A DNA stretch of 64,000 nt from a virus, in IMG/VR virus record IMGVR_UViG_3300045988_137393. One strand, given 5' to 3'. Of this stretch, positions 7,981 to 53,727 are shown in pieces; position 1 is the stretch's first letter, and every line of letters starts with the position of its first letter. The position numbers were made by a program, and so were the translations under genes. The notes beneath the pieces are model-generated. The model made no database searches and was not told where the DNA came from. It saw only the letters and a program-made list of their open reading frames with translations.

Positions 7981-8031
7981 TATATATACACTCCTTTCTT
8001 TTATTTTTAGTTTTCCTTTTAATCGTTGAGT

Positions 8032-8103
8032 TGCGGAAACAGGACTCGAACCTGCATTCTCTTGGTTATGAGCCAAGTGAGCTTCCATTGCTCGTCATTC
8101 CGC
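8032..8103 (-). tRNA. tRNA-Met/Ile2-type (CAU)
   Basis: Acceptor GCGGAA(T)/(T)TTCCGC, anticodon arm CTTGG-CTCATAA-CCAAG, T arm GCAGG-TTCGAGT-CCTGT; D stem is shifted by one nt relative to canonical numbering. Confidence 0.75.
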
Positions 8104-9026
8104 TATGATAATAGGAGAGGAGCGACCTCCCCATATTATATGTAGATTGGTAAGATCTACTGCCGATTGATTACCAGTCAACCGACAAAGAGAATATTGA
8201 AAATTCTCTGACATGTAATATTATCCAGTTGCAACGCCACATCGGAATTAAACCGAAATCTTCTCTGATATGAGACGCATGTTCAATCATGCTGATGACC
8301 TGGATAATATATTATTCTCCACATATTTTCAGTCTTCGGAGCAAAGACCTCTTGATAAGGTTTAATGACTCTTATCCGTCAATTAAGATTCTCATTAACG
8401 TAGAGAGGCACGAACATCTTCTCATTTCTGAAGGCTGAGATAAACCGATGATCCTAGATGTCGGTAGGAAAGAAATAGGACTTACAATACTACATGAATA
8501 ACAAATGCCAAGTTGATTTTTTCATATTTCAAATGAAACCGTGATGCTGTATCAACCCAATAACGGTTCACTATTTTGTGATTCTTATTGACTAACAGAA
8601 TCACTTTACCTACAACGATTAGAGGTGTTCCACACTTAACGGTGGTGGATTACCATATTTTTTAGTTGTCTACTAAGGCAAGATCTCTCCATAACACCGC
8701 CAATGAGCAGTAAGCAGTGGGAAGTTTTAGACCGTTCCAAAGTCAATAATTTCGCAAACCGACCTTTATATTTATGTCGCATATCGGTCAGCGACAGCTC
8801 ATTTGTAAAAGTCCGTCAACGGATTAACAGACCGCCCTCACTTCTTATGGATGTGAGCAGCTTTGTTATATTTTATTATTCTCTACATTGTCGTCACCTC
8901 TCGGCTCAAATATCACGTTGCTATGCTTTCTTGTTTAAATTAAATTGTTGATGTTGGACGAAAGCTTCATCGGTATCCTCAGTTTCTTCACGAATTATAT
9001 ACATCTGAATGGTTTCGGAAGGATTA
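8104..9026 (-). ncRNA. candidate large structured RNA (a), ~0.9 kb, 5' of tRNA-Met
   Basis: No minus-strand ORF >=60 aa; many perfect helices (8218-8228/8300-8310; 8189-8195/8203-8209; 8578-8585/8597-8604; 8537-8542/8563-8568); helix 8114-8120/8126-8132 is complete only on the minus strand (G.U). Confidence 0.45.
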
Positions 9027-14061: not shown

Positions 14062-14099
14062 TTCTTTCTTGATTTATTTCCTACAAAGTAGGATAGTAG

Positions 14100-14174
14100 T
14101 TGGAAATGTAGGATTTGAACCCACGACCTCCTGAACCCAAATCAGGCGTTCTAACCAAACTGAACTAATTCCCA
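14100..14174 (-). tRNA. tRNA-Pro (UGG), U1:A72, second copy
   Basis: Acceptor TGGGAAT/ATTTCCA, D arm TAGTTCAGTTTGGTTAGAAC, anticodon arm CCTGA-TTTGGGT-TCAGG, T arm GTGGG-TTCAAAT-CCTAC. Confidence 0.8.
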
Positions 14175-15008
14175 AAATAAAAAATCCCATACCGAAGTAT
14201 GAGATCCTTACTTAATATGAGCTGAGATATTTGACTCAATACACTAACACTTACTGTGGTTGGACACAGTTTATCACACAAGCGATTAGCTTGTAGTTAG
14301 CAACAACACCGATTTTGACATAATCGGCAAACTCTTACCACAAAGTATTATAGATTTTCTTTCTGCACATTCTTCCTTGCGAGATTCATAGGTTGCAGCC
14401 TATTAGAGTTGCACGTACTTGTACTTTCTCATATAACACCTTGCGAGTGCTATATGTCACCATATTACAGGTGAATAAGTTGTTTTTCTCTTTGCGGTCG
14501 CACACACTTTTGCTGTTTTGTAATTTTCTTTTAAATATTATTTACCTAAAATAATTTGATTTCTTTCAAAAGTATGTACTTATTATGGACGATGAGGTGT
14601 ACATTTGATCATCCGTACCTTTTGAGTACAGCCCAATCATCACCATCCTGCTCGGATTGCGATCTCCTTACTTTTTGATTCCATCCCTGTTTTTCAACTT
14701 AAGAGATATTACCAAAATCCTACCAGCGGTTATACTTGCGGTATTCCCACCAATAGTACACAAATCATACCCACATTTCTGTGTTACTACAGTGCCTATT
14801 TCAAGACACCCACCAATCAACCATATTCGCCAACAGTTGTCCTTGAATAGAAGGTTGGGCGTAGATTTTATGTGTTTTCCGTTAAACTGTATTTCACAGT
14901 CGCAGCCTTATAATACGATAAGAACCACTTTATACATGTCGCCATGCTTATTTTTGAGATTTAACATCTCCTGATCCGAAACCAACCAGTCCTACAAAAG
15001 TAGAAAAG
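14175..15008 (-). ncRNA. candidate large structured RNA (b), ~0.83 kb between tRNA-Asn and tRNA-Pro
   Basis: No minus-strand ORF >=60 aa; local hairpins (e.g. CCGATT..AATCGG 14319-14337); CCTTGCGAG (minus: CUC-GCAA-GG, GNRA-type) at 14375 and 14439. Confidence 0.4.
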
Positions 15009-15081
15009 CTCTCCCAGTAAGACTCGAACTTACGACTTTCGCATTAACAGTGCGATGCTCTACCAGCTGAGCTATAAGAGA
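15009..15081 (-). tRNA. tRNA-Asn (GUU)
   Basis: Canonical: acceptor TCTCTTA/TGGGAGA, TAGCTCAGCTGGTAGAGC D arm, anticodon loop CTGTTAA, T loop TTCGAGT. Confidence 0.85.
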
Positions 15082-15756
15082 TTAAGAATTGTCAGTGACC
15101 ATACCACAGGAACTGTAGCACAGCCACCGATCTATAAGAAGAGGAGTACAATATGAATATGTACCAATCTTAGAAATGAACTTTAGAATTGTTCAGAACC
15201 GCCAATGAATTAGTAGCGATGGAATCTCTTAGATTTTATCAGTTCCCCAAATAAGCTGATTATCCGTAGGTTTACCAACCTAACATTAAAATTAGCATTT
15301 ATGGCTGCTTGCACCACATACATTGTCTCTATGGACTTTATTGCCTCAGTATGATACGAGATCTAAATCACTGTTCTGAATTTAATTTGTGTTATATTGT
15401 GTCCGTATAGAACGTTGTTCTAATGTCTTTCGACAATTATATATTCTCTGTTTTATCAGCCAAGAAAAGCTGATTTCATTGTGTTAGCCTTTCGGCACAG
15501 CCCTCAATCAAGAGGGCTTTTATTTTGTAGTAAAACACGTGTTGCATACTTTTATTCCGCATTTGCATATAAGCGGAGAGGATAGTTATGTTGGTATTGT
15601 ACGAAGTACACGCAAATTTACACTGTTATACATTGATAAAGCTTCATTGCCCACTTTCTCCTCATAAGTTCACTTAACTACAATCGTTGAAACCGTTGAT
15701 TTTACTAGCTTTTAGCAACACTAAAGCAATTAAGTCTGTACAAAAACTGTGCATTT
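15082..15756 (-). ncRNA. candidate large structured RNA (c), ~0.67 kb between RNAP-like gene and tRNA-Asn
   Basis: ORF-free; GCC-GAAA-GGC hairpin (minus) next to GCCCTC..GAGGGC stem (15508-15527); shares a ~50-nt module starting CCGCCAATGA (15199) with segment (a) (8697). Confidence 0.4.
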
Positions 15757-18366
15757 TTAACAGTTTTTTGAAAAACATTTTAGCAAATTTGATGAATTTA
15801 TACTGTATAATACCTTCATTAACAATGATTTATTTTTATTAAGGACAGAAGATATTGATTTTTGATTTCGAATTGAACCAGGAAGAATTTTAAAACAACG
15901 ATCAATCATCCAAGAAAACAACCCAAGATAATTCTTAGATATTTTAATTGATTTCACTTCATAAATCATGTCATCAAAATCTTTTCTAAGCAATAAATAA
16001 TCATCATTCTCTGCATCATCGTTTATTTCATATAATTTTAATGAATATTTTGCTATAATTTCCTCAACCTTTCTACAAGTACGAATATTACTTTTCATTT
16101 CATATTTAACAAAAAAATGACTCATTGGCAGAGTTGTATCTGTATTATGAAACTTCATTAAATCCAAATCGTATAAGTAATTCATAGGACATTTTAAACT
16201 TTCGTTTATGTATTTTTCATTAAAACCTCTTTTGATTATTTTCCAAAACGAAGGATAAAGATTTGTTTTAATATCCATATCATCTTTTATTCTTTTGATT
16301 TCACCAGTTAAGTCGATGTCGAATCTTCTCTTTGCGTTATCAATAGCGACTTGAGCCAAAACACTTAATATACATACATAGTCAACATACTTTTGGTCAT
16401 CAAAATTACATGCATATGTTTGAGCTATTTGAGCTAAGTTGCTTGATTCGCCAATATCCAACTGAGATTTTGCTAAATTATTGTCAATTCCAGCATAATC
16501 GTCCATTGATTTACCATATATATTTTTCTCTTTTGGAATGTTATTTTTGATGGTAGGATAATTTTGATAGCATTTTCTCGCATGTTCTACAATATCACAT
16601 TGATTTGTTGTATACCCACTATCGGAATCTTGATCACTTCCATTGTTTCTATCCTGAAAATCTGTACCATTCATATTTACTGCAACGCACTGTTTTCCAA
16701 GGTTAAAATATTTTTCAAGATTTTTATGGTATATATTGTGAAGATATGTAAGATTGTTTTTACTATTAAAAGGACTTCTAAAGAAAGCTAGATATTCACC
16801 ACTATTAAATCTTTCAGTGTAACATTGAATTGTATTGCTTTCAGCAAAAAATGTGTCATCATTATCAACGTCAGACTCATTTCCTGTGGCAGCATATAAA
16901 AGCATTGCATATGGAGATCCAACTATTACTAAATTTTCAGCATTTTGAATAATACGTCCACTTTTCATATTTAACACATATCCTTTAATAATAGCTTTTT
17001 TTCTGTCACGAAAATATGAACTCCTTACAAAATCTGGATTTTGATTACACAAAGCAATTAAAACTTCGTAATCATTTGAAAAGTTTTTATTCTTCTCAAG
17101 ATATTTCAAAAACTCAGAATTGTCTTGTTTGAGTTTATTGATATACTCAACACTTTCCTTTACAACATTTGGCATTATTTTTTCATCAAGAGAGTTTACC
17201 ATTTGGTAGCTCATTCTCTGAACTTCTCCAAGTTTACTTTCATGTGCAGTTTTCACAATACCAAACATACAGCCGTTTTCATAAACTCGATCACACCAAT
17301 ATTCATACGACTTATCAAATTTCAACCATTTCATAGCATTGTCAGTTGTGATCAATTCAATATCCTTAACAAAATGTTCTACTCCAAACATATCTTTTAC
17401 AGTAGCAGAATAGTAATTCTCTCCAAAATAGTCTTTGAAAAATTGCTGGATATTTGTGCTAAAAGCTGCCATTTTACAAAAATGATGTCGTAATAATATA
17501 TATCCATTTCCCCAACTTGGGAAGATACTAGAATCAATTAACGCCTGTCCGTCAAACATCGTGTTCTTCAACTCGTAATTATCAATGTGTTTTGCATAGC
17601 AATGTTTGTTTTCATCTGTCTCAATACTAACTACTTTAGTAAAAAATGATCTATCCACATCTTTTAATATTAAAATATTCTTGGGATTAATTTTGACTTT
17701 ACCAACGACGGCACTGGATATGAGAGGAGCATAAGCACTAATTTCGACTGTAGGAGAATTCCTTTTAGGAAGTCGAATGCCCATATACAAAAATTTAATT
17801 GCTTTTTTATAAAGGCGATCACATATAAACATACACGAGCCTTTTTTTGCTTTTCCTGTACTTCTGTAAAGCATTTTGTAATGAATAGTTTCTCGTTTTA
17901 TGATATCACCGTTTTTCTTTCTGGTAATATATTCAACATTTACACCTTCATTATAAAACAATGTTCTTATTTCTTCTTTTGTGTGTTTGTGATATTTGTC
18001 TTTGTTCTTATTTGCTTCCTGAAATAATTGTGAAAGTTTTTTACGTTTGTTCCTTTTCTTTTGAATCTGACTATTATAGCCATATGATTTTGCAAGCTTA
18101 TATTCAGTTCTCGCATCTCTTGCGACTTTTTGTAAATGTGAAATCTCTTCATCGTAAGAACGAGAACCAAAATTAAATTCCAAACAAATTAAATCTCGTG
18201 TAGATTCTTCTTTCCATACCTTTAATCCATTTTCATTTAAAAAGTCACTAAAAAGGCTATTGGTAAACATCGCATCTTTATACTCATAATGATCTCTGAC
18301 ACCATTATTATACTCATAAAGGGTGCTTGCTTCAATATTCTTTATTTTAATTCCATATTCACTCAT
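15757..18366 (-). CDS. YonO/RdRP-like single-subunit two-barrel RNA polymerase (candidate)
   Basis: 869 aa; LYRSTGKAKKGSCMF and FFRSPFNSKNN...(30 aa)...NGSDQDSDSG resemble the basic-loop and R-x-P...DxDxD metal-site signatures of YonO/cellular RdRP family; size and nearby HU gene recall SPbeta yonN-yonO. Confidence 0.55.
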   Translation of the reverse strand: MSEYGIKIKNIEASTLYEYNNGVRDHYEYKDAMFTNSLFSDFLNENGLKVWKEESTRDLICLEFNFGSRSYDEEISHLQKVARDARTEYKLAKSYGYNSQIQKKRNKRKKLSQLFQEANKNKDKYHKHTKEEIRTLFYNEGVNVEYITRKKNGDIIKRETIHYKMLYRSTGKAKKGSCMFICDRLYKKAIKFLYMGIRLPKRNSPTVEISAYAPLISSAVVGKVKINPKNILILKDVDRSFFTKVVSIETDENKHCYAKHIDNYELKNTMFDGQALIDSSIFPSWGNGYILLRHHFCKMAAFSTNIQQFFKDYFGENYYSATVKDMFGVEHFVKDIELITTDNAMKWLKFDKSYEYWCDRVYENGCMFGIVKTAHESKLGEVQRMSYQMVNSLDEKIMPNVVKESVEYINKLKQDNSEFLKYLEKNKNFSNDYEVLIALCNQNPDFVRSSYFRDRKKAIIKGYVLNMKSGRIIQNAENLVIVGSPYAMLLYAATGNESDVDNDDTFFAESNTIQCYTERFNSGEYLAFFRSPFNSKNNLTYLHNIYHKNLEKYFNLGKQCVAVNMNGTDFQDRNNGSDQDSDSGYTTNQCDIVEHARKCYQNYPTIKNNIPKEKNIYGKSMDDYAGIDNNLAKSQLDIGESSNLAQIAQTYACNFDDQKYVDYVCILSVLAQVAIDNAKRRFDIDLTGEIKRIKDDMDIKTNLYPSFWKIIKRGFNEKYINESLKCPMNYLYDLDLMKFHNTDTTLPMSHFFVKYEMKSNIRTCRKVEEIIAKYSLKLYEINDDAENDDYLLLRKDFDDMIYEVKSIKISKNYLGLFSWMIDRCFKILPGSIRNQKSISSVLNKNKSLLMKVLYSINSSNLLKCFSKNC

Positions 18367-22816: not shown

Positions 22817-23118
22817 CCAGCTATAGGGTTTACTGCATTTCCAGTCCATCTAATTAGTTTTAACTACCCCGGCTAGGCAAAAACAATGGATAATAGATAT
22901 ATATTATACATTGTTTTTCTGATCCGATTTTCACAACAAATAGTATTAAAAACTATGTGTAGTAGTAGTTATTGGTTCTATGACATATAGTTTAATATTG
23001 TTATAATCCAATATAATCTTAATATCGTTTCCATTCACCACTTTTATATCAAAATCAATAATTTTTAGGTTCACATTCTCCACTTTATACCATAAAACCT
23101 GTCTAAAAATGGGACAGT

Positions 23119-23226
23119 CCACCACCACACAAAACCAACCTATAATTCTATTGTTAAAATTTCACAATAACACACACCATAACCACACTAAAACTACACA
23201 TATTTCACAAAACTATAAAATCTTAT
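23119..23226. other. G-depleted (C/A/T) block on plus strand
   Basis: Single G (23153) in ~107 nt; CCACCACCACACAAAACCAACC... Confidence 0.85.
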
Positions 23227-23229
23227 GAA

Positions 23230-23906
23230 AAAGACTTGAATATCTCACAAAAAAGGACTATTATACAGTTGTCCGAAGGGATAGGACATAAAACAAGTCC
23301 CATTGTTAGCACATCTGTAAAGAGGACACCGAACCTCACTTGACATCATTAGTTAAGATAGAACCTATCCAAGAATGATGTAAAACCTCACGGCTACTTG
23401 TACAGCCATTCCAAAGCGGATTAAAAAAGCTATCATATATAGCAACGTACAGGGCACTTGATAGCAGTTATTAAGAGGTTGAATTGATACCTTAATGAAA
23501 CAATTCAGTAAAGCCACACTATAGCAGGCACGTGAATAGTAGGAACGATAGAAACCTCATTAGTAGTCAAGTGGCTACTAATTACCATTCCGGCGATGTG
23601 TAACCGGCAAGACAGCAACTCATAAACGTATTAAATAATCTTTACAAGTGTATCACTTGTTTTGTGGTAAAAACATTAAATTACATAACAGGTTTATTAT
23701 ACCACATTCAAAGAGGTTGTTTCAACCTAACAAGATTAAATAGTACAATACCGCTTTATATGTCAAGCGTTAAAAGTATGGCAATATGACATAAGTATAG
23801 CAGGGTACGCAAGCTATACAGTGTAATTGTAAATTATTACAATAAGCACATTCCGCACATTACAATAATAAGCCACCAAGTAAACATGAAAAATGTTGAA
23901 TTATCC
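23230..23906 (+). ncRNA. candidate large structured RNA (d), ~0.68 kb
   Basis: No ORF >=60 aa in any frame 23129-24030; many hairpins (23344-23350/23374-23380; 23644-23650/23654-23660; 23713-23718/23722-23727); repeated module AACCTCA-hairpin-CCATTCC (23384/23406 and 23553/23585). Confidence 0.4.
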
Positions 23907-23994
23907 AGTCGCATTGAGCAGGCTCAGTCTACGCTTTTTTAAGCGGTTGTGAATTAAGCACATTTGAGAAGTGGTTCGATTCCACTTGCGACTT
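23907..23994 (+). ncRNA. tRNA-like element 1 (acceptor + canonical T arm, no 7-nt anticodon loop)
   Basis: Acceptor AGTCGCA/TGCGACT, T arm AGTGG-TTCGATT-CCACT, long extra arm TGTG..CACA; the anticodon-position hairpin CGCTT-TTTT-AAGCG has a 4-nt loop; D arm truncated. Confidence 0.5.
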
Positions 23995-24048
23995 TACCAA
24001 AAAAATAATTATATTGCACTCATGCGTTAAATGAGAGAAGGAGACATT

Positions 24049-24846
24049 ATGTTAAAATCTGAAAAATTCTACTCAAAAACTAATTCTTTAAAGGACACAA
24101 CTTTCGACTTTGCAGGACACGTTAGAACTTTAGTTCGTAACACTGAATTATCACGGATGCAGGATAAAAAATCATTCAAGGATGGTAAAAAAGCATTAGA
24201 GGATGCACACGCTGATATTGACGTTATGACTTGTGACGCTAGTATTATCAATCAGACTTTAGGTAACGATGCAGGTCAATTCATCAAAGACCGTGAAGAG
24301 ATTATTGCTTTAAAAGATGAAATTGCTACACTTTTACCGATTGACAACGTGACCGCACTTTGTCCAACTGACCGTGTACATATTACTTTGATGGCTCATG
24401 CTATCTATAAAAATGTACAGCTGGATGCTGATATTTTCGACACTGAAAAAGGCGGTGTTGATATTTCTAAGGCAGTACAGGTTTACTATAACAAAGGTTC
24501 TATGAAAGACTTAAAAGATGCTTTACGTTCTGTATTTAATAAATTAATCGGTTCTGAAGGTGATCACTTCTACGGCATTAAAATAAAAAAGTCCGATTTT
24601 ACAGATAAGGATCTGCGTAACTTCCTTGCAACTTTTGGCGGTTCTGCCAAACGTGAACAATCTAAGTCTAAGAAGGATGGAGTAGAAATTGTAAAATTTT
24701 CCGACTTTAACTATACAGACAAGTCAGGCAATAAAAAAGTACAGATTGCAGCTTTTACAACTCTTTGTGCAGTTGTTCTTGATAATGCGTCAAAACATGA
24801 GGTTATTAAGCCGGAAACTACAGAAGAGAAAACCGAAACAAAATAG
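24049..24846 (+). CDS. hypothetical protein (265 aa), first rightward gene
   Basis: Strong RBS GAAGGAGA 7 nt before ATG 24049; bracketed by two tRNA-like elements; no motif recognised. Confidence 0.75.
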   Translation: MLKSEKFYSKTNSLKDTTFDFAGHVRTLVRNTELSRMQDKKSFKDGKKALEDAHADIDVMTCDASIINQTLGNDAGQFIKDREEIIALKDEIATLLPIDNVTALCPTDRVHITLMAHAIYKNVQLDADIFDTEKGGVDISKAVQVYYNKGSMKDLKDALRSVFNKLIGSEGDHFYGIKIKKSDFTDKDLRNFLATFGGSAKREQSKSKKDGVEIVKFSDFNYTDKSGNKKVQIAAFTTLCAVVLDNASKHEVIKPETTEEKTETK

Positions 24847-26789: not shown

Positions 26790-26813
26790 ATAATAAGAAA
26801 GGAAGTAAAAACA

Positions 26814-26987
26814 ATGTCAGAGAAAGCAAAACAAATTCACGCAACCTATTGTGATTATGAAGTAGCAAAAGCAAGCAAACCATCACGGATTTACAGTGTC
26901 CGGACAGAAGTAAAACGAAACCATGGAATCAAAACCCATAATATGAGCAAAGCGATGTTAGCACAGACGTTAGCATCGCTTTTTTAG
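26814..26987 (+). CDS. small hypothetical protein (57 aa)
   Basis: Hand-translated ORF MSEKAKQIHATY..., GAAAGGAAG RBS; fills otherwise empty gap. Confidence 0.5.
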   Translation: MSEKAKQIHATYCDYEVAKASKPSRIYSVRTEVKRNHGIKTHNMSKAMLAQTLASLF

Positions 26988-27005
26988 TACAGATACAAGG
27001 AGGAA

Positions 27006-27188
27006 ATGCAAATGATAATTATCATTAAGGATGGTTATGATGTTATTGATAATCGTCCAGAAGCAGAAATCGCACAGGCAGAACGTGATTATTACGAAGA
27101 TCGATATAACCGTGATTTAAAACGCAAACTCGAAGCAAATAAACATCCATTTGCAAAGAAGTTATTATCTGCATGTGGATTACTTTAA
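27006..27188 (+). CDS. hypothetical protein
   Basis: 60-aa ORF, AAGGAGGA RBS. Confidence 0.6.
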   Translation: MQMIIIIKDGYDVIDNRPEAEIAQAERDYYEDRYNRDLKRKLEANKHPFAKKLLSACGLL

Positions 27189-27204
27189 AAAGGAGAATAA
27201 TACT

Positions 27205-27321
27205 ATGAACGAAACATTGAAAAATAACTACTATGCCTTATTAATAGCAATTACAAAAGGCAAAACAGCAAAAGAATCACTTTTAGCTATGGGAATTTGC
27301 CAGATAGCGAAAATAATTTAG
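27205..27321 (+). CDS. small hypothetical protein (38 aa)
   Basis: AAAGGAGAA RBS, hand-translated. Confidence 0.4.
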   Translation: MNETLKNNYYALLIAITKGKTAKESLLAMGICQIAKII

Positions 27322-27353
27322 CAAGAAGAGCAGAAAGAGAGGCGAAAAAATAG

Positions 27354-27467
27354 ATGAAAGGATATGAAGTACCGGATGGTTATATGGGTTGGATCAATGG
27401 AAAATACCAGCTTTTTGAAAGCGAAAACGAATATTACGAAACACTTTTAGAAAGGGAAGAGATCTAA
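27354..27467 (+). CDS. small hypothetical protein (37 aa)
   Basis: Hand-translated; stop abuts next ATG. Confidence 0.35.
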   Translation: MKGYEVPDGYMGWINGKYQLFESENEYYETLLEREEI

Positions 27468-27605
27468 ATGGAAAGAGAAATTAAAGGCGAATTATTCAAT
27501 GCATTGTGTAAAAGATGCGGAGAACGTAGAACTTGTCATGGGATCTGCGTTGACATGAACAATGCAATGGTAAAGGCAAATGAAATTAAAGCGACTGCAA
27601 AATAA
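27468..27605 (+). CDS. small hypothetical Cys-containing protein (45 aa)
   Basis: Hand-translated; C..C....C...C pattern. Confidence 0.4.
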   Translation: MEREIKGELFNALCKRCGERRTCHGICVDMNNAMVKANEIKATAK

Positions 27606-27650
27606 TTGTGGTCGCTATTTTAATACAAAAAATTAAAACAAGAAAGGTAA

Positions 27651-48359: not shown

Positions 48360-50097
48360 CCTAAAATGAAAAATTAAACCTGTACTTTGACAACTGAAAA
48401 TGGCTATAAAAGGTCTAGTTTACTTTTTCTACAGCCCTTTCCAAGGCATGATATATTGGTTATATCGATTACTATCTGCTGGGAAAGGAGCAGATATGAA
48501 TTATTACAATGCTAGCGGACAAATGGATCTGTCAGATCGAATAGCAATAGAAACTGGGATATGCATCGGGGAGTCATTCAAAAAAATAGCAAAAAGACTT
48601 CGCAGACATCCATCTACTATTGCACATGAAGTTAAAGAAAACAGAACCTTCATTAAAGGTAATTACCCGAATGGAAAAGATTGCCGCATGGCAAGACAAT
48701 TCACAGTAAGGAATTTGTGCGGCTGTGATGAAGAAGCCTGTAATACAAAGTGTAGACTTTGCAGAGGAGTGGATTGTACCAAGGTATGCGATAGATATGT
48801 ATCAGTTGCTTGCCATAAGTTTGATTCGCCTCCGTATGTTTGTAATAACTGTAAGGATAAAAAGCTTTGCAACAAAGATAAGTATATTTACAGTGCGAAA
48901 TTCGCTGATGCAGCTGTAACTCGTCGTAGATCGGAGAGTCGACAAGGAGTTAGACTTTCTGATGAAAAGAAGGAAGAATTGGATGAACTTGTGACTCGAC
49001 TTGTTAAGAAAGGCCAGCCTTTAACACACATATATGCAGAACATGAAAATGAAATGCCAGTGTGTTTGAGAACACTTTATAACTATATCGATGAAGGTGC
49101 CTTATCTATTAAAAACATAGATTTAAGAAGAAAGACAGGCTACAAACCACGAAAGAAAAAGTACAACGATATCAATGGATTTCACTCAATGGAGTATAGA
49201 CAGTGTAGGACATATGAGGATTTTGAGTATGCGATGAAATTCAAATATTCAGAAGATGAAGTAACAGAAATGGATACTGTAAAAGGCGTTAGAGAATCTG
49301 GAAAGCGTTTGCTTACAATGATCTTTAGAAAGAACAACGTAATGCTACTATTCCTGATGCCAGATGGAAAAGCAGAATCCGTAAAAAGGGTTCTGGACTA
49401 TCTCGAGACAGGATTGGGAATAGATGTTTTTAGACGGTTGTTTCCGGTTATATTAACTGACAACGGCAGCGAATTCAAGAAGGTAGATGAGTTAGAACTT
49501 ACGCTGGATGAGGATGGCTTCCTAGTTTATAGAACAAGCCTTTATTACTGTGATCCAATGGCTTCATGGCAAAAAGGGTGTATCGAGAAGAATCATGAAT
49601 TTATTCGTTATGCCGTGCCAAAAGGAAAAAGCTTAAACCCATACACGCAAGAAGATATGACTTTATTAATGAATCATATCAATAGTGTAAAACGTCCTGG
49701 ACTTGGAAATAAAAGTCCATACGAGCTCGTAGAAGAGGATGATGAAGATTTCAAAGCATTAATGTCATTATTAAAAATGCACCTCATCCCGCCAGATGAA
49801 GTGCATTTAATGCCAGATTTATTCGTTAAAAAGTAATTAGACCGAAGCTGCAGATAGTAATCGATTTGTCAATAGGTATTAAATAGACGGGTCGCATTTA
49901 CTTTTGCATAACAAGTAGCCAGCCGTCTGTTAATCATGCAAACAAATATATACCTGCTATCTGGAATGCCTTAATTATAGCATGATATTTGAATTTGAAC
50001 ATCCATTATTAGGGCTTTATTTGACCTTTATTTGACCTCAGAACAGAATTTTGATTATTAGACGTATTTTCAGTTGGGTTTTAGTTTTTCATTCAAG
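48360..50097 (+). mobile_element. IS30-family insertion sequence (~1.74 kb)
   Basis: Imperfect terminal inverted repeats CCTAAAATGAAAAATTAAACC (48360-) vs revcomp of right end CTTGAATGAAAAACTAAAACC (-50097); single transposase ORF; flanked by 14-nt direct repeat. Confidence 0.75.
48496..49836 (+). CDS. IS30-family DDE transposase
   Basis: N-terminal HTH (ESFKKIAKRLRRHPSTIAHEV), DDE core with LTDNGSEF and YYCDPMASWQKGCIEKNHEFIRY (IS30-type SWQ+G..EN box); GGAAAGGAG RBS at ATG 48496. Confidence 0.8.
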   Translation: MNYYNASGQMDLSDRIAIETGICIGESFKKIAKRLRRHPSTIAHEVKENRTFIKGNYPNGKDCRMARQFTVRNLCGCDEEACNTKCRLCRGVDCTKVCDRYVSVACHKFDSPPYVCNNCKDKKLCNKDKYIYSAKFADAAVTRRRSESRQGVRLSDEKKEELDELVTRLVKKGQPLTHIYAEHENEMPVCLRTLYNYIDEGALSIKNIDLRRKTGYKPRKKKYNDINGFHSMEYRQCRTYEDFEYAMKFKYSEDEVTEMDTVKGVRESGKRLLTMIFRKNNVMLLFLMPDGKAESVKRVLDYLETGLGIDVFRRLFPVILTDNGSEFKKVDELELTLDEDGFLVYRTSLYYCDPMASWQKGCIEKNHEFIRYAVPKGKSLNPYTQEDMTLLMNHINSVKRPGLGNKSPYELVEEDDEDFKALMSLLKMHLIPPDEVHLMPDLFVKK

Positions 50098-50111
50098 GCA
50101 AACATGAACAA
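50098..50111. repeat. 14-nt direct repeat flanking IS (right)
   Basis: GCAAACATGAACAA. Confidence 0.85.
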
Positions 50112-50138
50112 GAAATCGAACAAACGTTTGCTTTACAC

Positions 50139-50167
50139 TTGACACAAACACATGTTTGGACTATGAT
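50139..50167 (+). promoter_or_regulatory. sigma-A-type promoter overlapped by CAAAC-type palindromes
   Basis: TTGACA (50139-44), 17-nt spacer, TATGAT (50162-67); palindromes CAAACGTTTG (50121-30) and CAAACAcaTGTTTG (50145-58). Confidence 0.6.
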
Positions 50168-50364
50168 TATTGTTGTAAGAGAAATAATGGAAATAAAAAA
50201 CAGTCCGAATGACGTGGCTGCAACCACATATGTCACTCAGACTGTAACTCAACCAACCAAGATTAAGTCATTACATATTTTGGCATAATTTTCCAGTTAT
50301 GTCAAGTTCAGTATGGCTAAAATCATAGCCTATTTCCAATATTTTATCAAAATTTAATATTTAT

Positions 50365-50437
50365 AGGGCATTCGCCAAGCGGAGAAGGCATTGCACTTTG
50401 ATTGCAAAATTCATCAGTTCGAATCTGATATGCCCTG
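50365..50437 (+). tRNA. tRNA-Gln (UUG)
   Basis: Acceptor AGGGCAT/ATGCCCT, D arm TCGCCAAGCGGAGAAGGC, anticodon arm TTGCA-CTTTGAT-TGCAA, T arm ATCAG-TTCGAAT-CTGAT. Confidence 0.85.
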
Positions 50438-50596
50438 CTTTGTGACATTCCACCCGGTATGTTACAGAACGCAAGAGATTTCCTTGTAAGAGCAAAATGT
50501 GTAGTTGCTAAAGTTCTACCATAGTTTAATCCACTAACGGATTACAAGCTGATACTATAGAACTTCCTGATAAACTTGCGATAGTGTCAGCTACTT
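50438..50596 (+). ncRNA. structured spacer between tRNA-Gln and tRNA-Met
   Basis: 7-bp closing helix GTAGTTG/CAGCTAC, inner helices GTTCTA..TAGAAC and TAATCC-ACTAAC-GGATTA; no T-loop signature. Confidence 0.3.
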
Positions 50597-51519: not shown

Positions 51520-53727
51520 GTGCATGAAGTGAAAGACGAAATATTGCGTGAAAAATTAAATAATCTTTCATCACAACAGTTGGAATGGATTAATGAATAC
51601 TGTGTAAATGATATGTCAAAATTGAAGAAAATTAGTTACAATGCATTTTTCAGGTATGGGATTCCAGCACATGAACATGACGAATTGTACGATGATGCAA
51701 TGAATGTTCTGATGGAAAGTGTTATCAACTTTGATTCATCTCAAGGTGCGAGTTTTAAAACTTACCTTATTAATAATATTAAAAAATCTGTTATTGACTG
51801 GTATAGAGACAACTATCAGAGATGTAAAAGAAAAAATCTATTAACTGATAAAAATGGAAAGATAGTAAAGGTTGATAAAAATGGAAATGTAACAGATGAC
51901 GATAAAGGAAAACCAGTTATTATTCCAGATACTTCATTTGATGCACCTACTGAAGAAGATAATGATTTAGTAGAAAAAATTGCATCTGACTTTAACGTAG
52001 AAGACAAGAGTGAGTTCGATTTTAGTGCCGATGAAAAAGTTGATAATTTTATTGATTCTTTGCCGAGGATACAAAAAAATATTTTGCTGATGCGGATGGA
52101 GAATGTTCCTGCTGATAATATAAAACAAAAATTGAATATATCAGACAGAGAATATAGTAGTGCTATGAAGTCAATTAAGATAAATAAAGGACTTTCAGTA
52201 TTTTCAAAGAATAAAAATGATGGGAATTATGATGTGGAGGTAAATAATATGGAAGACAGAATTATTGAAATTAGCGAATCTGAAAATTACAGGACGGACA
52301 AGTATAGCATGTATTCGTTGTTACAGGATAAGAAAAATGGAGACGTGAACTGCAACTACATCTTGCAACGTGAACCTTTTCAGTGGACTACAGAAGAAGC
52401 GAATAGATATTTTTGTCGTATTCTTAGTAATCTTCCTATTCCAGAAATTATTCTTTGTGAACAGAAGAAAAAGGGATTGACAATCTCTCATTTAATTGAC
52501 GGATTGCAGAGACTTTCATATGCTGAGGCATTCAAGGAAAATCGTATTAAGATTGGTTCAGCAGGAGCAGAGAGACATTTAATTCAGTATAGAGATTATG
52601 TCTTAGATGATAATGGAAATCGTGTACTTGATGAAGATGGCTTACCAGAATATGAGATGAAAATATTTGATGTTATAGGGAAATATTATAAAGATCTTCC
52701 TGATGAGTTAAAGAAACGATTCAATAATTTCAATATAAACGTAACAAAATTCTTTGATTGTACAGATGAGCAGATTGCAGATCATATTCGTGATTATAAC
52801 AATCATGCGAGTATGAATAAGGAACAGGGTGGTTTTCTTAATGTATCTGCACAGACAGCGGGATATATTAAAAATATTTCACAGAAAAACACATTCTTTA
52901 AAAATTGTGGGAAGTTTACAGATAATAATGTTATTAAGGGAAAGTTGGAACGTGTTGTTGCAGAATCAATAATGTTAATGTTCTTCCGTGATTCATGGAA
53001 AGCAAAACTTGATACAATTTACAAATATGTTGATGAAAATGCAACAGAACAGCAGTTCTTAAAACTTAATTCACATTTTAATAGATTGGAATTAGCATTA
53101 GGCGATGACAATAAAGACTTGAAGTCATTACTTACTCCAACTACAATGCCAATGTGGATTGCAGTATTTGATAAATTTACTACATATAATATTGAAGATT
53201 CAAGATTCATTGATTTCTTAAGAGCATATAATACAGAACTTAAAGATAAAGAAGTTGATGGTGTATCTATGGCAGATTTTAAAGACCAACAGACAAAGAA
53301 AAAGGCAACTATTACAGGTAAAATTGATTTACTTATAAAACTGATGAATGAATTTTTACATATTGGTACAAGAGAAGTAAATAACACAGAATTGGAGAAT
53401 AACAATACGAAAGAAAGTGCTGAAGAAAATACGGAAGAAAGTGTTCTTTCCTTTGTTCAAGAAAATGCAAATCCAAATGTGACAGACGAAGATATAAACC
53501 TTTACACAGACATGGTAGAAGATTGTGTTAAGATTGACGATCCAGTTTATAAAGAGTGTGGAATGGCATTAGTAGCACTCATGGCATATGCTTGTCAAAA
53601 TGATAAGGATCAGGATTTTGAAAAATGGATTGAGAATTACAGAAATAAATCTGATTTTAGTTCATCACAGAAAGTTAATTATACATATATGAAACGCAGC
53701 TTTGATAATTTTATAGCAAATGCGTAA
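51520..53727 (+). CDS. fusion protein: sigma-70-like regions 2 and 4 + DUF262 (ParB-like) domain + C-terminal extension
   Basis: N-term FDSSQGASFKTYLINNIKKSVIDWYRD (region 2-like) and LPRIQKNILLMRMENVPADNIKQKLNISDREYSSAMKSI (region 4 HTH-like); middle YILQREPFQWT...LIDGLQRLSYAE (DUF262 boxes); GTG start uncertain. Confidence 0.6.
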   Translation: MHEVKDEILREKLNNLSSQQLEWINEYCVNDMSKLKKISYNAFFRYGIPAHEHDELYDDAMNVLMESVINFDSSQGASFKTYLINNIKKSVIDWYRDNYQRCKRKNLLTDKNGKIVKVDKNGNVTDDDKGKPVIIPDTSFDAPTEEDNDLVEKIASDFNVEDKSEFDFSADEKVDNFIDSLPRIQKNILLMRMENVPADNIKQKLNISDREYSSAMKSIKINKGLSVFSKNKNDGNYDVEVNNMEDRIIEISESENYRTDKYSMYSLLQDKKNGDVNCNYILQREPFQWTTEEANRYFCRILSNLPIPEIILCEQKKKGLTISHLIDGLQRLSYAEAFKENRIKIGSAGAERHLIQYRDYVLDDNGNRVLDEDGLPEYEMKIFDVIGKYYKDLPDELKKRFNNFNINVTKFFDCTDEQIADHIRDYNNHASMNKEQGGFLNVSAQTAGYIKNISQKNTFFKNCGKFTDNNVIKGKLERVVAESIMLMFFRDSWKAKLDTIYKYVDENATEQQFLKLNSHFNRLELALGDDNKDLKSLLTPTTMPMWIAVFDKFTTYNIEDSRFIDFLRAYNTELKDKEVDGVSMADFKDQQTKKKATITGKIDLLIKLMNEFLHIGTREVNNTELENNNTKESAEENTEESVLSFVQENANPNVTDEDINLYTDMVEDCVKIDDPVYKECGMALVALMAYACQNDKDQDFEKWIENYRNKSDFSSSQKVNYTYMKRSFDNFIANA

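Follow-up and report, generated by a model that had tools for sequence, protein, structure and literature searches.

A large structured RNA continued by a tRNA-like element in the genome of a gut phage: a candidate new class of phage RNA

The window analysed here, a stretch of 64,000 nt of viral DNA (IMG/VR record IMGVR_UViG_3300045988_137393), carries eight ordinary tRNA genes and, at the head of a plus-strand gene block directly to the right of a strand switch, a 1.2-kb ORF-poor stretch. An earlier note had singled out positions 23230-23906 of the window as a structured, ORF-free and comparatively GC-rich segment that ends at a tRNA-like element. The segment is indeed devoid of sizeable reading frames: of the ORFs in all frames from 23129 to 24030 none reaches 60 aa, and the longest (23365-23517, minus strand) has 50 aa. 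Across the homologue alignment, variability is flat by codon phase (0.096, 0.094 and 0.100), that is, shows no 3-base periodicity, and 272 of the 292 gap runs are not multiples of three. The higher GC content holds on one side only, since the segment (0.37 and 0.34) is richer than its left neighbours (0.23-0.32) but lies within or near the range of the genes on its right (0.35-0.39). All homologues were found on viral contigs or human-gut metagenome contigs. The host is probably Dorea or another member of the Lachnospiraceae, a lead given by a neighbouring gene; an exact search of reference genomes with the CRISPR repeat returned no match.

A sigma70-type promoter (TTGAAT, 17-nt spacer, TATTAT) was located by consensus scan at 23236-23264 on the plus strand. 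Its -35 box, spacing and -10 box are kept in five aligned clades, the distant L021 and L048 included, among which the sequence downstream of the promoter diverges (alignment A2), and the same layout is found in two of three distant relatives (L207 and L208). We infer a transcription start near 23271; the segment as first delimited, from 23230, thus takes in the promoter, and the transcript itself probably begins at about 23271. The 5′ end of the RNA (23271-23313) holds one or two variable hairpins (UUGUCC-GAAG-GGAUAG; GGAC...GUCC; alignments A2 and A5), and this part, which varies between clades, was left out of the curated pair count. Upstream of the promoter, the region 22850-23230 contains a 40-bp palindrome and a CA-rich 35-nt direct repeat.

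The plus strand of the segment folds with a minimum free energy of -178.4 kcal/mol, compared to -151.6 ± 7.4 for shuffled sequences (z -3.63, none of 20 shuffles being as good), and the adjacent coding gene gives a z of -0.19 in the same test. The curated fold comprises 157 pairs in 27 helices, with two H-type pseudoknots, and is 97.8% paired across 23 distinct homologues from gut-phage contigs. In sixty of the 157 pairs both bases have changed, whereas column shuffles yield 34.6 ± 3.3 such pairs and slid partners yield 3-9. The covariation score is 0.258, against about 0.03 with slid partners. These figures were obtained from related and recombining sequences with a fold refined on the same alignment that served for counting. 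In a test of the strand, 164 pair cells are G-U and 20 are A-C, which favours the plus strand. Covariation, the excess of G-U over A-C, the conserved promoter and the covarying tRNA-like element described below together argue that 23271-23906 is a plus-strand structured RNA, joined to a tRNA-type element as the earlier note had proposed; the conservation in related phages, on which that proposal had been made to depend, was found, as the hairpins are kept and carry compensatory changes. Nearly all supported helices are local, however, with a longest supported span of about 120 nt, and no helix linking the 5′ and 3′ domains survived testing on the homologues, so that one large folded RNA, rather than a string of sub-domains, is not proven.

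The 5′ domain (23314-23611, plus strand) contains the curated hairpins 1-14; in 13 of these helices, one or more pairs changed on both sides. They include GAGG/CCUC (23322-37), CUUGAC/GUUAAG (23339-57), UAUC/GAUG (23366-80), GGCU/AGCC (23392-407), AUUC/GGAU (23408-21), GCUAU/AUAGC (23429-43), AUUAGUAGUC/GGCUACUAAU (23559-82) and CCGG/CCGG (23590-607). The nested hairpin first read here, CATCATT/AATGATG around GATAG/CTATC, can be drawn in the window but is not conserved among the homologues, which favour CUUGAC/GUUAAG (23339-44 with 23352-57) and UAUC/GAUG (23366-69 with 23377-80), both with compensatory changes. L002, L005, L017 and L020 carry, in place of this 5′ domain, a counterpart whose sequence has diverged strongly while its architecture runs parallel. 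The two halves of the RNA recombine independently, and in these four the mosaic breakpoint lies near 23612.

The best-conserved part is a core at 23455-23560, made of a hairpin (CUUGAUAG/UUAUUAAG), two pseudoknots and the hairpins GCC/GGC and CGU/ACG. Pseudoknot 1 pairs AGGU (23476-79) with ACCU (23489-92) and is interleaved with UGAAUUG/CAAUUCA (23480-86 with 23501-07); pseudoknot 2 joins CCU (23555-57) to AGG (23541-43), which lies in the CGU/ACG loop. The core alignment A8 (17 sequences from 7 clades) is 96.3% paired, with a covariation score of 0.487 against at most 0.084 for slid partners. In this alignment the pair of pseudoknot 1 that varies is A-U, C-G or G-C, apart from a single A-C mismatch. 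The partners of pseudoknot 2, read by eye from the sequences, are AGG/CCU, AAG/CUU, AGUCC/GGACU, UAGAC/GUCUA or AGUUC/GAACU depending on the clade. A further compensatory change in the core was seen in L022 and L023. A covariance model of the core (R1) finds exactly one copy in the 64-kb window, and neither this model nor an nhmmer profile detects a second copy of the RNA there.

A repeated module had also been described in this part of the segment. The string AACCTCA-N(10-30)-CCATTCC does occur exactly twice in the 64-kb window (23384-23412 and 23553-23591), when shuffles lead one to expect none, but it does not correspond to one repeated structural unit, because the flanking motifs differ in role between the two copies. 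At 23332, the third AACCTCA provides the 3′ strand for the GAGG/CCUC hairpin, and an all-against-all column scan revealed no pseudoknot partner for the first AACCUCA (23384-90).

The 3′ domain (23612-23906, plus strand) consists of a 120-nt multi-helix unit followed by four hairpins. The closing helix of the unit, ACGUAUUAAAUAAUCUU/AAGAUUAAAUAGUACAAU (23626-42 with 23732-49), has 5 pairs changed on both sides and encloses hairpins at 23644-60, 23664-705 and 23714-28. The hairpins after the unit lie at 23759-93, 23795-819, 23821-49 and 23883-97; the last of them has an A-rich loop and recurs in distant relatives with other stems (GCC/GGC and GUAC/GUAC). Three hairpins already recognized by the earlier note, ACAAGTG/CACTTGT (23644-23660), AGGTTG/CAACCT (23714-23728) and GTATAGC/GCTATAC (23795-23819), are all present within the homologue-supported fold. 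The first of these, together with UUUUGUGG, obtains a weakly terminator-like score. However, the covarying closing helix encloses it, and homologues of the L014 type have no U-run.

Several further pairings were tried and dropped. The helix GAAGCGG/CCGCUUU (23413-19 with 23751-57), proposed by RNAalifold, gives way to the local AUUC[CAAAGC]GGAU hairpin, which covaries instead; moreover, L002-type homologues lack its 5′ strand and one sequence breaks the helix. UCUGU/AUAGA (23314-18 with 23358-62) has a C-A mismatch in 5 sequences. UGUAA/UUACA (23316-20 with 23860-64), a candidate closing helix for the entire RNA, fits the main clade but is lost in the L002 type, and UGUAAAGA/UCUUUACA (23316-23 with 23639-46) has 3 mismatches in the L014 type and clashes with a covarying helix. 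A pairing of the A-run at 23423-30 with the U-rich loop of the tRNA-like element is unsupported, because L065 and L068 have no A-run.

The tRNA-like element directly follows the RNA, at 23907-23994 on the plus strand, where ARAGORN calls a 'tRNA-???' with a 2-base anticodon. It has a 7-bp acceptor stem (AGUCGCA, 23907-13, with UGCGACU, 23987-93) followed by a discriminator U (23994), and a canonical T arm with a 5-bp stem (AGUGG-UUCGAUU-CCACU), the loop being UUCGAUU or UUCAAAU. Two other arms depart from the tRNA pattern: the D-like arm (UUGAG/CUCAG, with a CAGG loop) has a 5-6 bp stem and a 4-5 nt loop, which is not a standard D arm, and the 'anticodon' hairpin (CGCUU/AAGCG) has a U-rich loop of 6 or 8 nt (UUUUUUAA), of other lengths in other clades. 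The variable-arm hairpin (UGUG/CACA) is deleted in L023. A tRNA should have an anticodon loop of 7 nt in which base 33 is U and base 37 a purine; no such loop is found here, CCA is not encoded in register, and the Rfam tRNA model (RF00005; 29-bit criterion) does not match 23907-23994 even at E<=10, nor the homologues at E<=1. We thus refer to the element as a tRNA mimic. Its arms covary: four of the five have pairs changed on both sides in alignment A5, and the fifth, the stem of the U-rich loop, which changed there on one side only, covaries across clades (CGCUU/AAGCG, CCCUU/AAGGG, CACUU/AAGUG). The acceptor stem and the T arm likewise both covary across clades, and they are all that is left of the mimic in L207-L209, where the D-like and 'anticodon' arms are absent. 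In tRNA processing, these two parts serve as recognition sites for RNase P, RNase Z and the CCA-adding enzyme. The conserved U-rich loop and D-like arm suggest that the mimic has a role beyond that of a cleavage signal.

Downstream of the mimic, a leader hairpin (CUCAU-GCGUUAA-AUGAG, 24019-24035) stands directly before a Shine-Dalgarno sequence (AAGGAG, 24038-24043) and the plus-strand gene of a 265-aa protein (24049-24846). This hairpin is also conserved and covarying, reading CCCAC/GUGGG in L027 and GGUG/CACC in L207. The gene is linked to the RNA in every clade examined: in each of them a homologue of it follows the core island at a distance of 720-800 nt, down to 45% protein identity, and gene-free leaders of about 850 nt precede homologues at 37-39% identity. 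The cassette formed by the RNA, the mimic and the gene thus persists to 37% protein identity, where the mimic is an acceptor/T-arm minihelix. The protein has no Pfam or PHROG match; its AlphaFold2 model is confident (pLDDT 91), but a Foldseek search against the PDB and viral structures was uninformative, with no PDB fold match. No convincing terminator was found between the RNA, the tRNA-like element and the gene.

The Rfam scan proposed by the earlier note was run and identified no family. At the gathering score, Rfam 15 gave no GOLLD, ROOL, OLE, raiA, intron or mimic-tRNA match in the whole window, and relaxed searches (E<=10 on 22850-24060, E<=1 on the whole window and E<=1 on 7 divergent homologues) brought up nothing relevant. 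The Rfam models for tmRNA, RNase P RNA, riboswitches, T-box leaders and self-splicing introns did not match either, and the sub-threshold matches are at chance level (sR35, E 1.6; cyano_tmRNA, E 1.7, on a 17-nt stretch of the T arm). A sensitive blastn search of the segment against 50,697 GenBank phage records was also negative, and a 2023 catalogue of viral structured RNAs holds motifs of 29-151 nt only. The RNA is best read as a family absent from Rfam 15 and as a new class of large ornate phage RNA.

How would such an RNA be made? We consider it moderately probable that a precursor is cut at the mimic to yield a stand-alone RNA of about 640 nt, GOLLD- or ROOL-like in kind. Host RNA polymerase would start at the 23236-23264 promoter and produce a single precursor, in which the ~640-nt RNA, with its more than 20 helices and two H-type pseudoknots, is followed by the mimic (23907-23994) and by the hairpin-led mRNA for the 265-aa protein. 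The acceptor/T-arm minihelix would draw the host tRNA-processing enzymes, RNase P cutting at the 5′ side of the mimic (23906/23907) and RNase Z or an equivalent cutting after the discriminator base (23994). Once parted from the mRNA by these cuts, the structured RNA would have a fixed 3′ end and may then act as a stable, stand-alone molecule, broadly like GOLLD and ROOL, large ornate phage RNAs that occur beside tRNA genes. The starting points of this scheme, namely the RNA-level fold and its strand, the promoter, the covarying mimic and the conserved cassette, are shown, and we count in favour of processing that the acceptor stem and T arm are the sole parts of the mimic kept in the most distant relatives. 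From there we infer processing at the mimic and independence from the mRNA, as we did the transcription start, and any biochemical function would be of the same standing.

That the RNA is strictly linked to the 265-aa gene would be explained just as well by a cis-acting leader or by a protein partner. A giant 5′ leader, acting on the 265-aa gene or on the rightward operon through translation, mRNA stability or elongation (e.g. put-like antitermination), would account for an RNA that always directly precedes one and the same gene, even where protein identity has fallen to 37-45%, that heads the plus-strand gene block to the right of the strand switch, and that is served by one conserved promoter with no intrinsic terminator ahead of the gene; the covarying hairpin adjoining the Shine-Dalgarno sequence also agrees with it. 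We think it rather unlikely, however, since the minihelix lodged between leader and mRNA is of a type that cells cleave, which would uncouple the two. Moreover, no Rfam riboswitch, T-box or leader family matches, and known cis-regulators and antiterminator RNAs, at about 70-250 nt, are far smaller. The RNA could instead be the partner of the co-encoded protein, in a ribonucleoprotein kept as one cassette. The linkage in every clade is what one would expect in this case, and a protein predicted to fold confidently with no known fold or family is compatible with an RNA-binding role. But no RNA-binding domain or fold was matched in the protein, the linkage may reflect mere operon order, and GOLLD and ROOL are reported as RNA-only assemblies (PMC12286853), so that we regard this possibility as quite improbable.

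A different objection bears on the unity of the RNA. Most helices are local hairpins, the halves recombine independently with a breakpoint near 23612, the long-range helices of RNAalifold failed checking and a weak terminator-like hairpin lies at 23644-60, all of which would suit a row of independent small RNAs or hairpins, or two RNAs split near 23612-23665, adjacent by chance. However, a single conserved promoter was found, the terminator-like hairpin belongs to the covarying 120-nt unit and loses its U-run in the L014 type, the pseudoknots bind neighbouring hairpins together, and the whole array occurs in the same order in all clades, which makes this explanation very unlikely. That the segment acts as DNA (a replication origin, a packaging site or protein-binding repeats), with incidental hairpins, seems scarcely conceivable. 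The ORF-poor stretch right of a strand switch would be a suitable place for such an element, and the palindrome and direct repeat at 22850-23230 have a DNA-like character, but these features lie upstream of the promoter, outside the RNA, and there are no iteron-like multi-copy repeats inside 23271-23906. Furthermore, compensatory changes that keep the pairing and an eight to one excess of G-U over A-C are expected of RNA and not of duplex DNA.

The stand-alone RNA that we favour may not be the only one of its kind in this genome. Other ORF-free segments of the window had been thought to be similar, and this was borne out for 15007-14175 (minus strand), which is another large covarying RNA, and more weakly for 15756-15082 (minus strand); apart from tRNAs, the ORF-free segments share no sequence similarity. 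At least one further large covarying RNA in the same window suggests that phages of gut Lachnospiraceae are a rich and unexplored source of such molecules. One could go further and suppose that this phage lineage carries an 'RNA island', in which several giant structured RNAs, unrelated to one another and not described before, each have a tRNA or a mimic fused to them or at their side, and that the present mimic, with its conserved U-rich loop, is a functional appendage. We hold this to be unlikely; if it were true, the appendage could act as a decoy that diverts host anticodon nucleases or defences aimed at tRNAs, or it could be the cargo or handle that a multimeric RNA assembly presents, much as has been proposed for GOLLD, and it might act with the co-encoded protein of novel fold.

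Very few RNAs of bacteria and phages are known that exceed about 500 nt and have an elaborate, conserved fold. For GOLLD and ROOL, cryo-EM has revealed cage-like structures but no function is known yet, and an unrelated class with the same genomic habit, in phages and beside tRNAs, would be an independent handle on what such RNAs do. The present one offers experimental footholds in a clear promoter, a tRNA-like end that predicts exact processing sites and an obligately linked protein.

The arrangement as a whole recalls several known systems. In transcripts of the MALAT1/mascRNA type and in tRNA-punctuated transcripts, a long non-coding RNA ends in an acceptor/T-arm mimic, and RNase P and RNase Z cut there to define its end. 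The same kind of mimic is found here at the same place, with cleavage predicted, but those systems are eukaryotic or organellar, and in most clades the phage mimic retains a conserved U-rich 'anticodon' loop as well as a D-like arm. With phage tRNAs (RF00005) the mimic shares the 7-bp acceptor stem, the 5-bp T stem with its T-loop and a class-II-like variable arm, and it differs from them in that the tRNA model is unmatched, the D-like arm is atypical, the loop is variable and U-rich, and there is no in-register CCA.

ROOL (RF03087), with a mean length of 581 nt, has many stems and several pseudoknots and no known protein partner or function (PMC5737381, PMC12286853). Like ROOL, the present RNA is large, ornate, encoded by a phage or prophage near tRNA genes, and found in the Bacillota. 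However, the ROOL covariance model has no match in the window or in 7 divergent homologues, and the RNA here continues covalently into a degenerate tRNA mimic, followed in turn by a fixed protein gene. The size is similar and two pseudoknots are supported, but only a single multi-helix junction is. GOLLD (RF01998) is very large and lies in tRNA-rich phage regions, sometimes with tRNAs within or beside it, and is composed of one conserved and one variable half (PMC12286853). Its model, the conserved 3′ half included, does not match here, our RNA is shorter (~640 nt), and the linked element does not look like a functional tRNA; the division into a conserved core and mimic and a remainder exchanged between lineages is nonetheless reminiscent of it. 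As with GOLLD and ROOL, the setting is a phage genome rich in tRNA genes (PMC5737381, PMC12286853). What the RNA has in common with both is its encoding by a phage beside tRNA genes, of which the window has eight, with the RNA itself adjoining a mimic, and an extensive covariation-backed structure without coding capacity.

We have very little doubt about either the fold or the strand of segment (d), the ORF-free stretch at 23230-23906: it almost certainly specifies a real, previously uncatalogued, large structured RNA, folded at the RNA level from the plus strand. The longest ORF in any frame between 23129 and 24030 has 50 aa, in agreement with the earlier note, which had reported none of 60 aa or more, and the variability of the homologues lacks three-base periodicity, 272 of the 292 gap runs not being multiples of three. 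The minimum free energy of the plus strand (23230-23994) is -178.4 kcal/mol, compared to -151.6 ± 7.4 in dinucleotide shuffles (z -3.63), with z-scores of -3.01 for the minus strand and -0.19 for the adjacent coding gene. A higher GC content had also been claimed; this is true of the segment (0.37 and 0.34) relative to the genes on its left (0.23-0.32) but not to those on its right (0.35-0.39).

The fold was built on A5, an alignment of 23 distinct full-length homologues, by refining an RNAalifold consensus by hand to 157 pairs, 27 helices and two pseudoknots. Standard pairing is found in 97.8% of the cells of the 157 curated pairs, and 24 of the 27 helices contain at least one compensatory pair. 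The hairpins from which a structured RNA had been proposed are, with one exception given below, supported by this covariation analysis: 60 pairs of A5 change on both sides, compared to 3-9 when partners are slid one to three columns and 34.6 ± 3.3 after within-column shuffling of the 3′ letters, although the shuffle figures cannot be read as probabilities, the homologues being related and subject to recombination and the counts being made on the alignment used to refine the fold. The covariation score is 0.258, versus about 0.03 after sliding. G-U cells outnumber A-C cells in the curated fold (164 versus 20), which favours the plus strand. The case for an RNA rests on the controls with slid partners, on the asymmetry between the strands and on the independent clades. 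The long-range helices given by RNAalifold were dropped, as they failed against covariation and the L002-type sequences; the longest-reaching well-supported element spans 120 nt.

The part recognisable in the largest number of clades is a core at 23455-23560 (+). It comprises the hairpin CUUGAUAG/UUAUUAAG, a first pseudoknot of four pairs (AGGU/ACCU, 23476-79 with 23489-92) interleaved with the hairpin UGAAUUG/CAAUUCA, the hairpins GCC/GGC and CGU/ACG, and a second pseudoknot in which AGG in the loop of the CGU/ACG hairpin (23541-43) pairs with CCU (23555-57). On A8, an alignment of 17 sequences from seven clades, the first four elements are 96.3% paired, with a covariation of 0.487 versus at most 0.084 when slid. 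The variable pair of pseudoknot 1 is A-U, C-G or G-C in A8, with one A-C exception; for pseudoknot 2, inspection of the sequences by eye gives the partners AGG/CCU, AAG/CUU, AGUCC/GGACU, UAGAC/GUCUA or AGUUC/GAACU according to the clade. Searched with a covariance model of the core, the window yields a single copy, with no match in its other ORF-free segments; the model also matches loci L022 and L023, where a C-G pair invariant in the training set becomes U-A.

Two readings of the earlier note fared less well. The hairpin CATCATT/AATGATG around GATAG/CTATC can be read in the window, but the homologues keep the incompatible CUUGAC/GUUAAG and UAUC/GAUG. The module AACCTCA-N(10-30)-CCATTCC does occur exactly twice in the 64 kb (23384-23412 and 23553-23591; 0 expected by chance), but its flanking words differ in role. 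The second copy supplies the 3′ strand of pseudoknot 2 through CCU of AACCUCA and opens the hairpin CCGG/CCGG with CC of CCAUUCC; the first supplies the 5′ strand of the hairpin AUUC/GGAU through AUUC of CCAUUCC, and no pairing partner was found for its AACCUCA. A clearer internal duplication relates CACUUGAC...GUUAAGA (23337-58) to CACUUGAUA...UAUUAAGA (23455-76).

The Rfam 15 scan that had been suggested matched no family (gathering scores; E≤10 on the region itself, E≤1 across the whole window), nor did sensitive blastn with the region match GenBank phage records. Homologues came from 31 loci on IMG/VR contigs of 6-216 kb, found with the downstream 265-aa protein as bait, and from a degenerate pattern of the most conserved stretch, which gave further viral loci and 34 metagenome loci; human gut is the source in every descriptive record name among the latter. 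Conservation of the segment is a mosaic. The main clade is collinear over 23300-24000 at 72-99% identity, L002, L005, L006, L017 and L020 show high identity only in the promoter region and at 23612-24048, and the distant clades (L021-L024, L027/L051, L048, L065, L068/L077) keep an island at about 23448-23560 and the tRNA-like element. The seemingly "replaced" 5′ half of the L002 group is the same layout, strongly diverged: it has a hairpin with a CAUAU loop, an A-run before the hairpin, and CAUUGUGA-AGCAGG-UUCACAAG where others have CACUUGAUA-GCAGU-UAUUAAG.

The promoter TTGAAT-17 nt-TATTAT (23236-23264), whose position would place the transcription start near 23271, is kept in five clades, including L021 and L048, with diverging sequence beyond it, and the same layout is found in L207 and L208. 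Upstream of it lie a perfect-centred 40-bp palindrome, AAAAACAATGGATAATAGAT/ATATATTATACATTGTTTTT (22879-22918), and, in 22850-23230, a G-poor CA-rich tract, partly conserved in relatives, with a 35-nt direct repeat (23114-23148 and 23172-23206); a bidirectional terminator and an UP-like or protein-binding region are possible roles for them. The sole terminator-like site inside the RNA is the hairpin at 23644-60 followed by UUUUGUGG; it lies within the covarying 120-nt closing helix, and its U-run is lost in L014-type sequences. On the minus strand, antisense within the 3′ domain, a near-consensus promoter-like TTGAAA-18 nt-TATAAT with an upstream TG (23696-23725; 11/12 matches) may be a by-product of conserved AU-rich RNA sequence.

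The tRNA-like element at which the segment had been said to end was confirmed at 23907-23994 (+) by ARAGORN, as "tRNA-???" with a two-base anticodon, and its arms covary: a 7-bp acceptor stem and a 5-bp T stem whose loop reads UUCGAUU or UUCAAAU, both canonical, a variable-arm hairpin and a D-like arm. Even so, it departs from an ordinary tRNA in several ways: 23907-23994 gives no hit to the Rfam tRNA model at E≤10, the D-like arm has a 5-6 bp stem and a CAGG loop, the variable arm is deleted in L023, CCA is not encoded in register, and the loop of the "anticodon" hairpin is U-rich and measures 6 or 8 nt in the window and other lengths in other homologues. In the most distant loci, L207-L209 (proteins 37-39% identical), only the acceptor stem, a short linker/hairpin and the T arm are left, so that the acceptor/T-arm minihelix is the universally retained part. 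In tRNA maturation, RNase P, RNase Z and the CCA-adding enzyme recognise their substrates by this minihelix. Its retention, together with this recognition, leads us to propose a tRNA-type processing step at the mimic, which would free a stand-alone RNA, and we regard this full model with moderate confidence.

The main rivals concern the 265-aa gene (24049-24846), directly upstream of which the segment lies, within a 1.2-kb ORF-poor stretch (22850-24030). The RNA could be a cis-acting leader of this gene. No terminator was found between the tRNA-like element and ATG 24049, a conserved and covarying hairpin (24019-35) directly precedes the Shine-Dalgarno and this ATG, the core island lies 720-800 nt upstream of the protein homologue in all clades checked, down to 45% identity, and homologues at 37-39% protein identity have gene-free leaders of about 850 nt. 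The same linkage bears on a partnership of the RNA with the protein, whose family of about 80 clusters has no Pfam or PHROG assignment, and whose confident AlphaFold2 model (pLDDT 91, pTM 0.84) matches no solved structure and resembles only uncharacterised viral proteins.

The window belongs to a large phage genome (about 33% GC, eight ordinary tRNA genes), whose genes point left as far as about 20000 and right from 24049 onward. The gene for a YonO-type single-subunit RNA polymerase (15757-18366, minus) has its nearest GenBank relatives in uncultured "Bacteriophage sp." of human faecal origin, followed by phages of Enterocloster and Clostridium; in homologues L118-L121, L126, L134, L138-L141, L149 and L150 the match spans about 2950 or 3800 nt versus 2607, implying that they carry an inserted intron, intein or other element, about 340 or 1200 nt long, that the window's copy lacks. 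Two genes encode proteins unusual in a phage: that at 54445-57045 a full-length P-type cation-transporting ATPase (866 aa), and that at 51520-53727 a 735-aa protein with sigma-70 region 2 and a GmrSD-type endonuclease N-terminal domain. A CRISPR array on metagenome contigs L055, L063 and L080 (about L080:700-1500; repeat GTTTGAGAATGATGTAAAAATGTATGGTACACAAG) carries a spacer, CTATACACTTGCGAGTAGTTCACAAGGGGTT, matching the conserved core of the RNA gene in an L068-type phage at 28/31 positions, and a gene close by on that contig shares 100% identity with genomes of Dorea amylophila and Dorea sp.; Dorea (Lachnospiraceae) is thus a likely host for this group of phages.

Another large ORF-free structured RNA, segment (b), of about 833 nt, lies at 14175-15007 (minus), between tRNA-Asn (15008-15081) and tRNA-Pro (14099-14174). 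Its RNAalifold consensus on 14 distinct homologues has 233 pairs, 96.7% paired, with compensatory changes in 89 of them versus 8-15 when slid, figures that lean in its favour as the fold comes from the same alignment; 573 G-U versus 41 A-C cells place the RNA on the minus strand. No Rfam family matches it, nor does its sequence resemble that of segment (d). An ORF-free stretch at 15082-15756 (minus), between the polymerase gene and tRNA-Asn, gives a weaker signal than (b) and (d). Its conservation is mosaic, relatives having just 15756-15418 and about 15194-15082 in common with it, and on 11 sequences its 171 predicted pairs are 93.2% paired, with 31 compensatory versus 10-14 slid. Further ORF-free stretches lie directly upstream of tRNA-Met (8105-8702, minus; tRNA 8030-8104, minus; fold z -2.77), directly upstream of tRNA-Gln (49837-50364, plus; tRNA 50365-50438, plus; fold z -1.93) and at 26790-27650.

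A catalogue of structured RNAs from viruses, compiled in 2023 on IMG/VR, holds motifs of 29-151 nt only, and short pieces of the present RNA may be among them. The find matters because large structured RNAs of this kind are seldom met and the window contains at least one other. GOLLD and ROOL are large ornate RNAs of phages and prophages, often near tRNA genes and with tRNAs sometimes linked; they assemble into cages made of RNA alone and have no known function (PMC5737381, PMC12286853). The segment (d) RNA resembles them in size class, phage origin, tRNA neighbourhood, pseudoknots and the combination of conserved and variable parts, but matches neither covariance model, the defining membership test. 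Given these shared features and unmatched models, we file it as a new class of the same general kind as GOLLD and ROOL.
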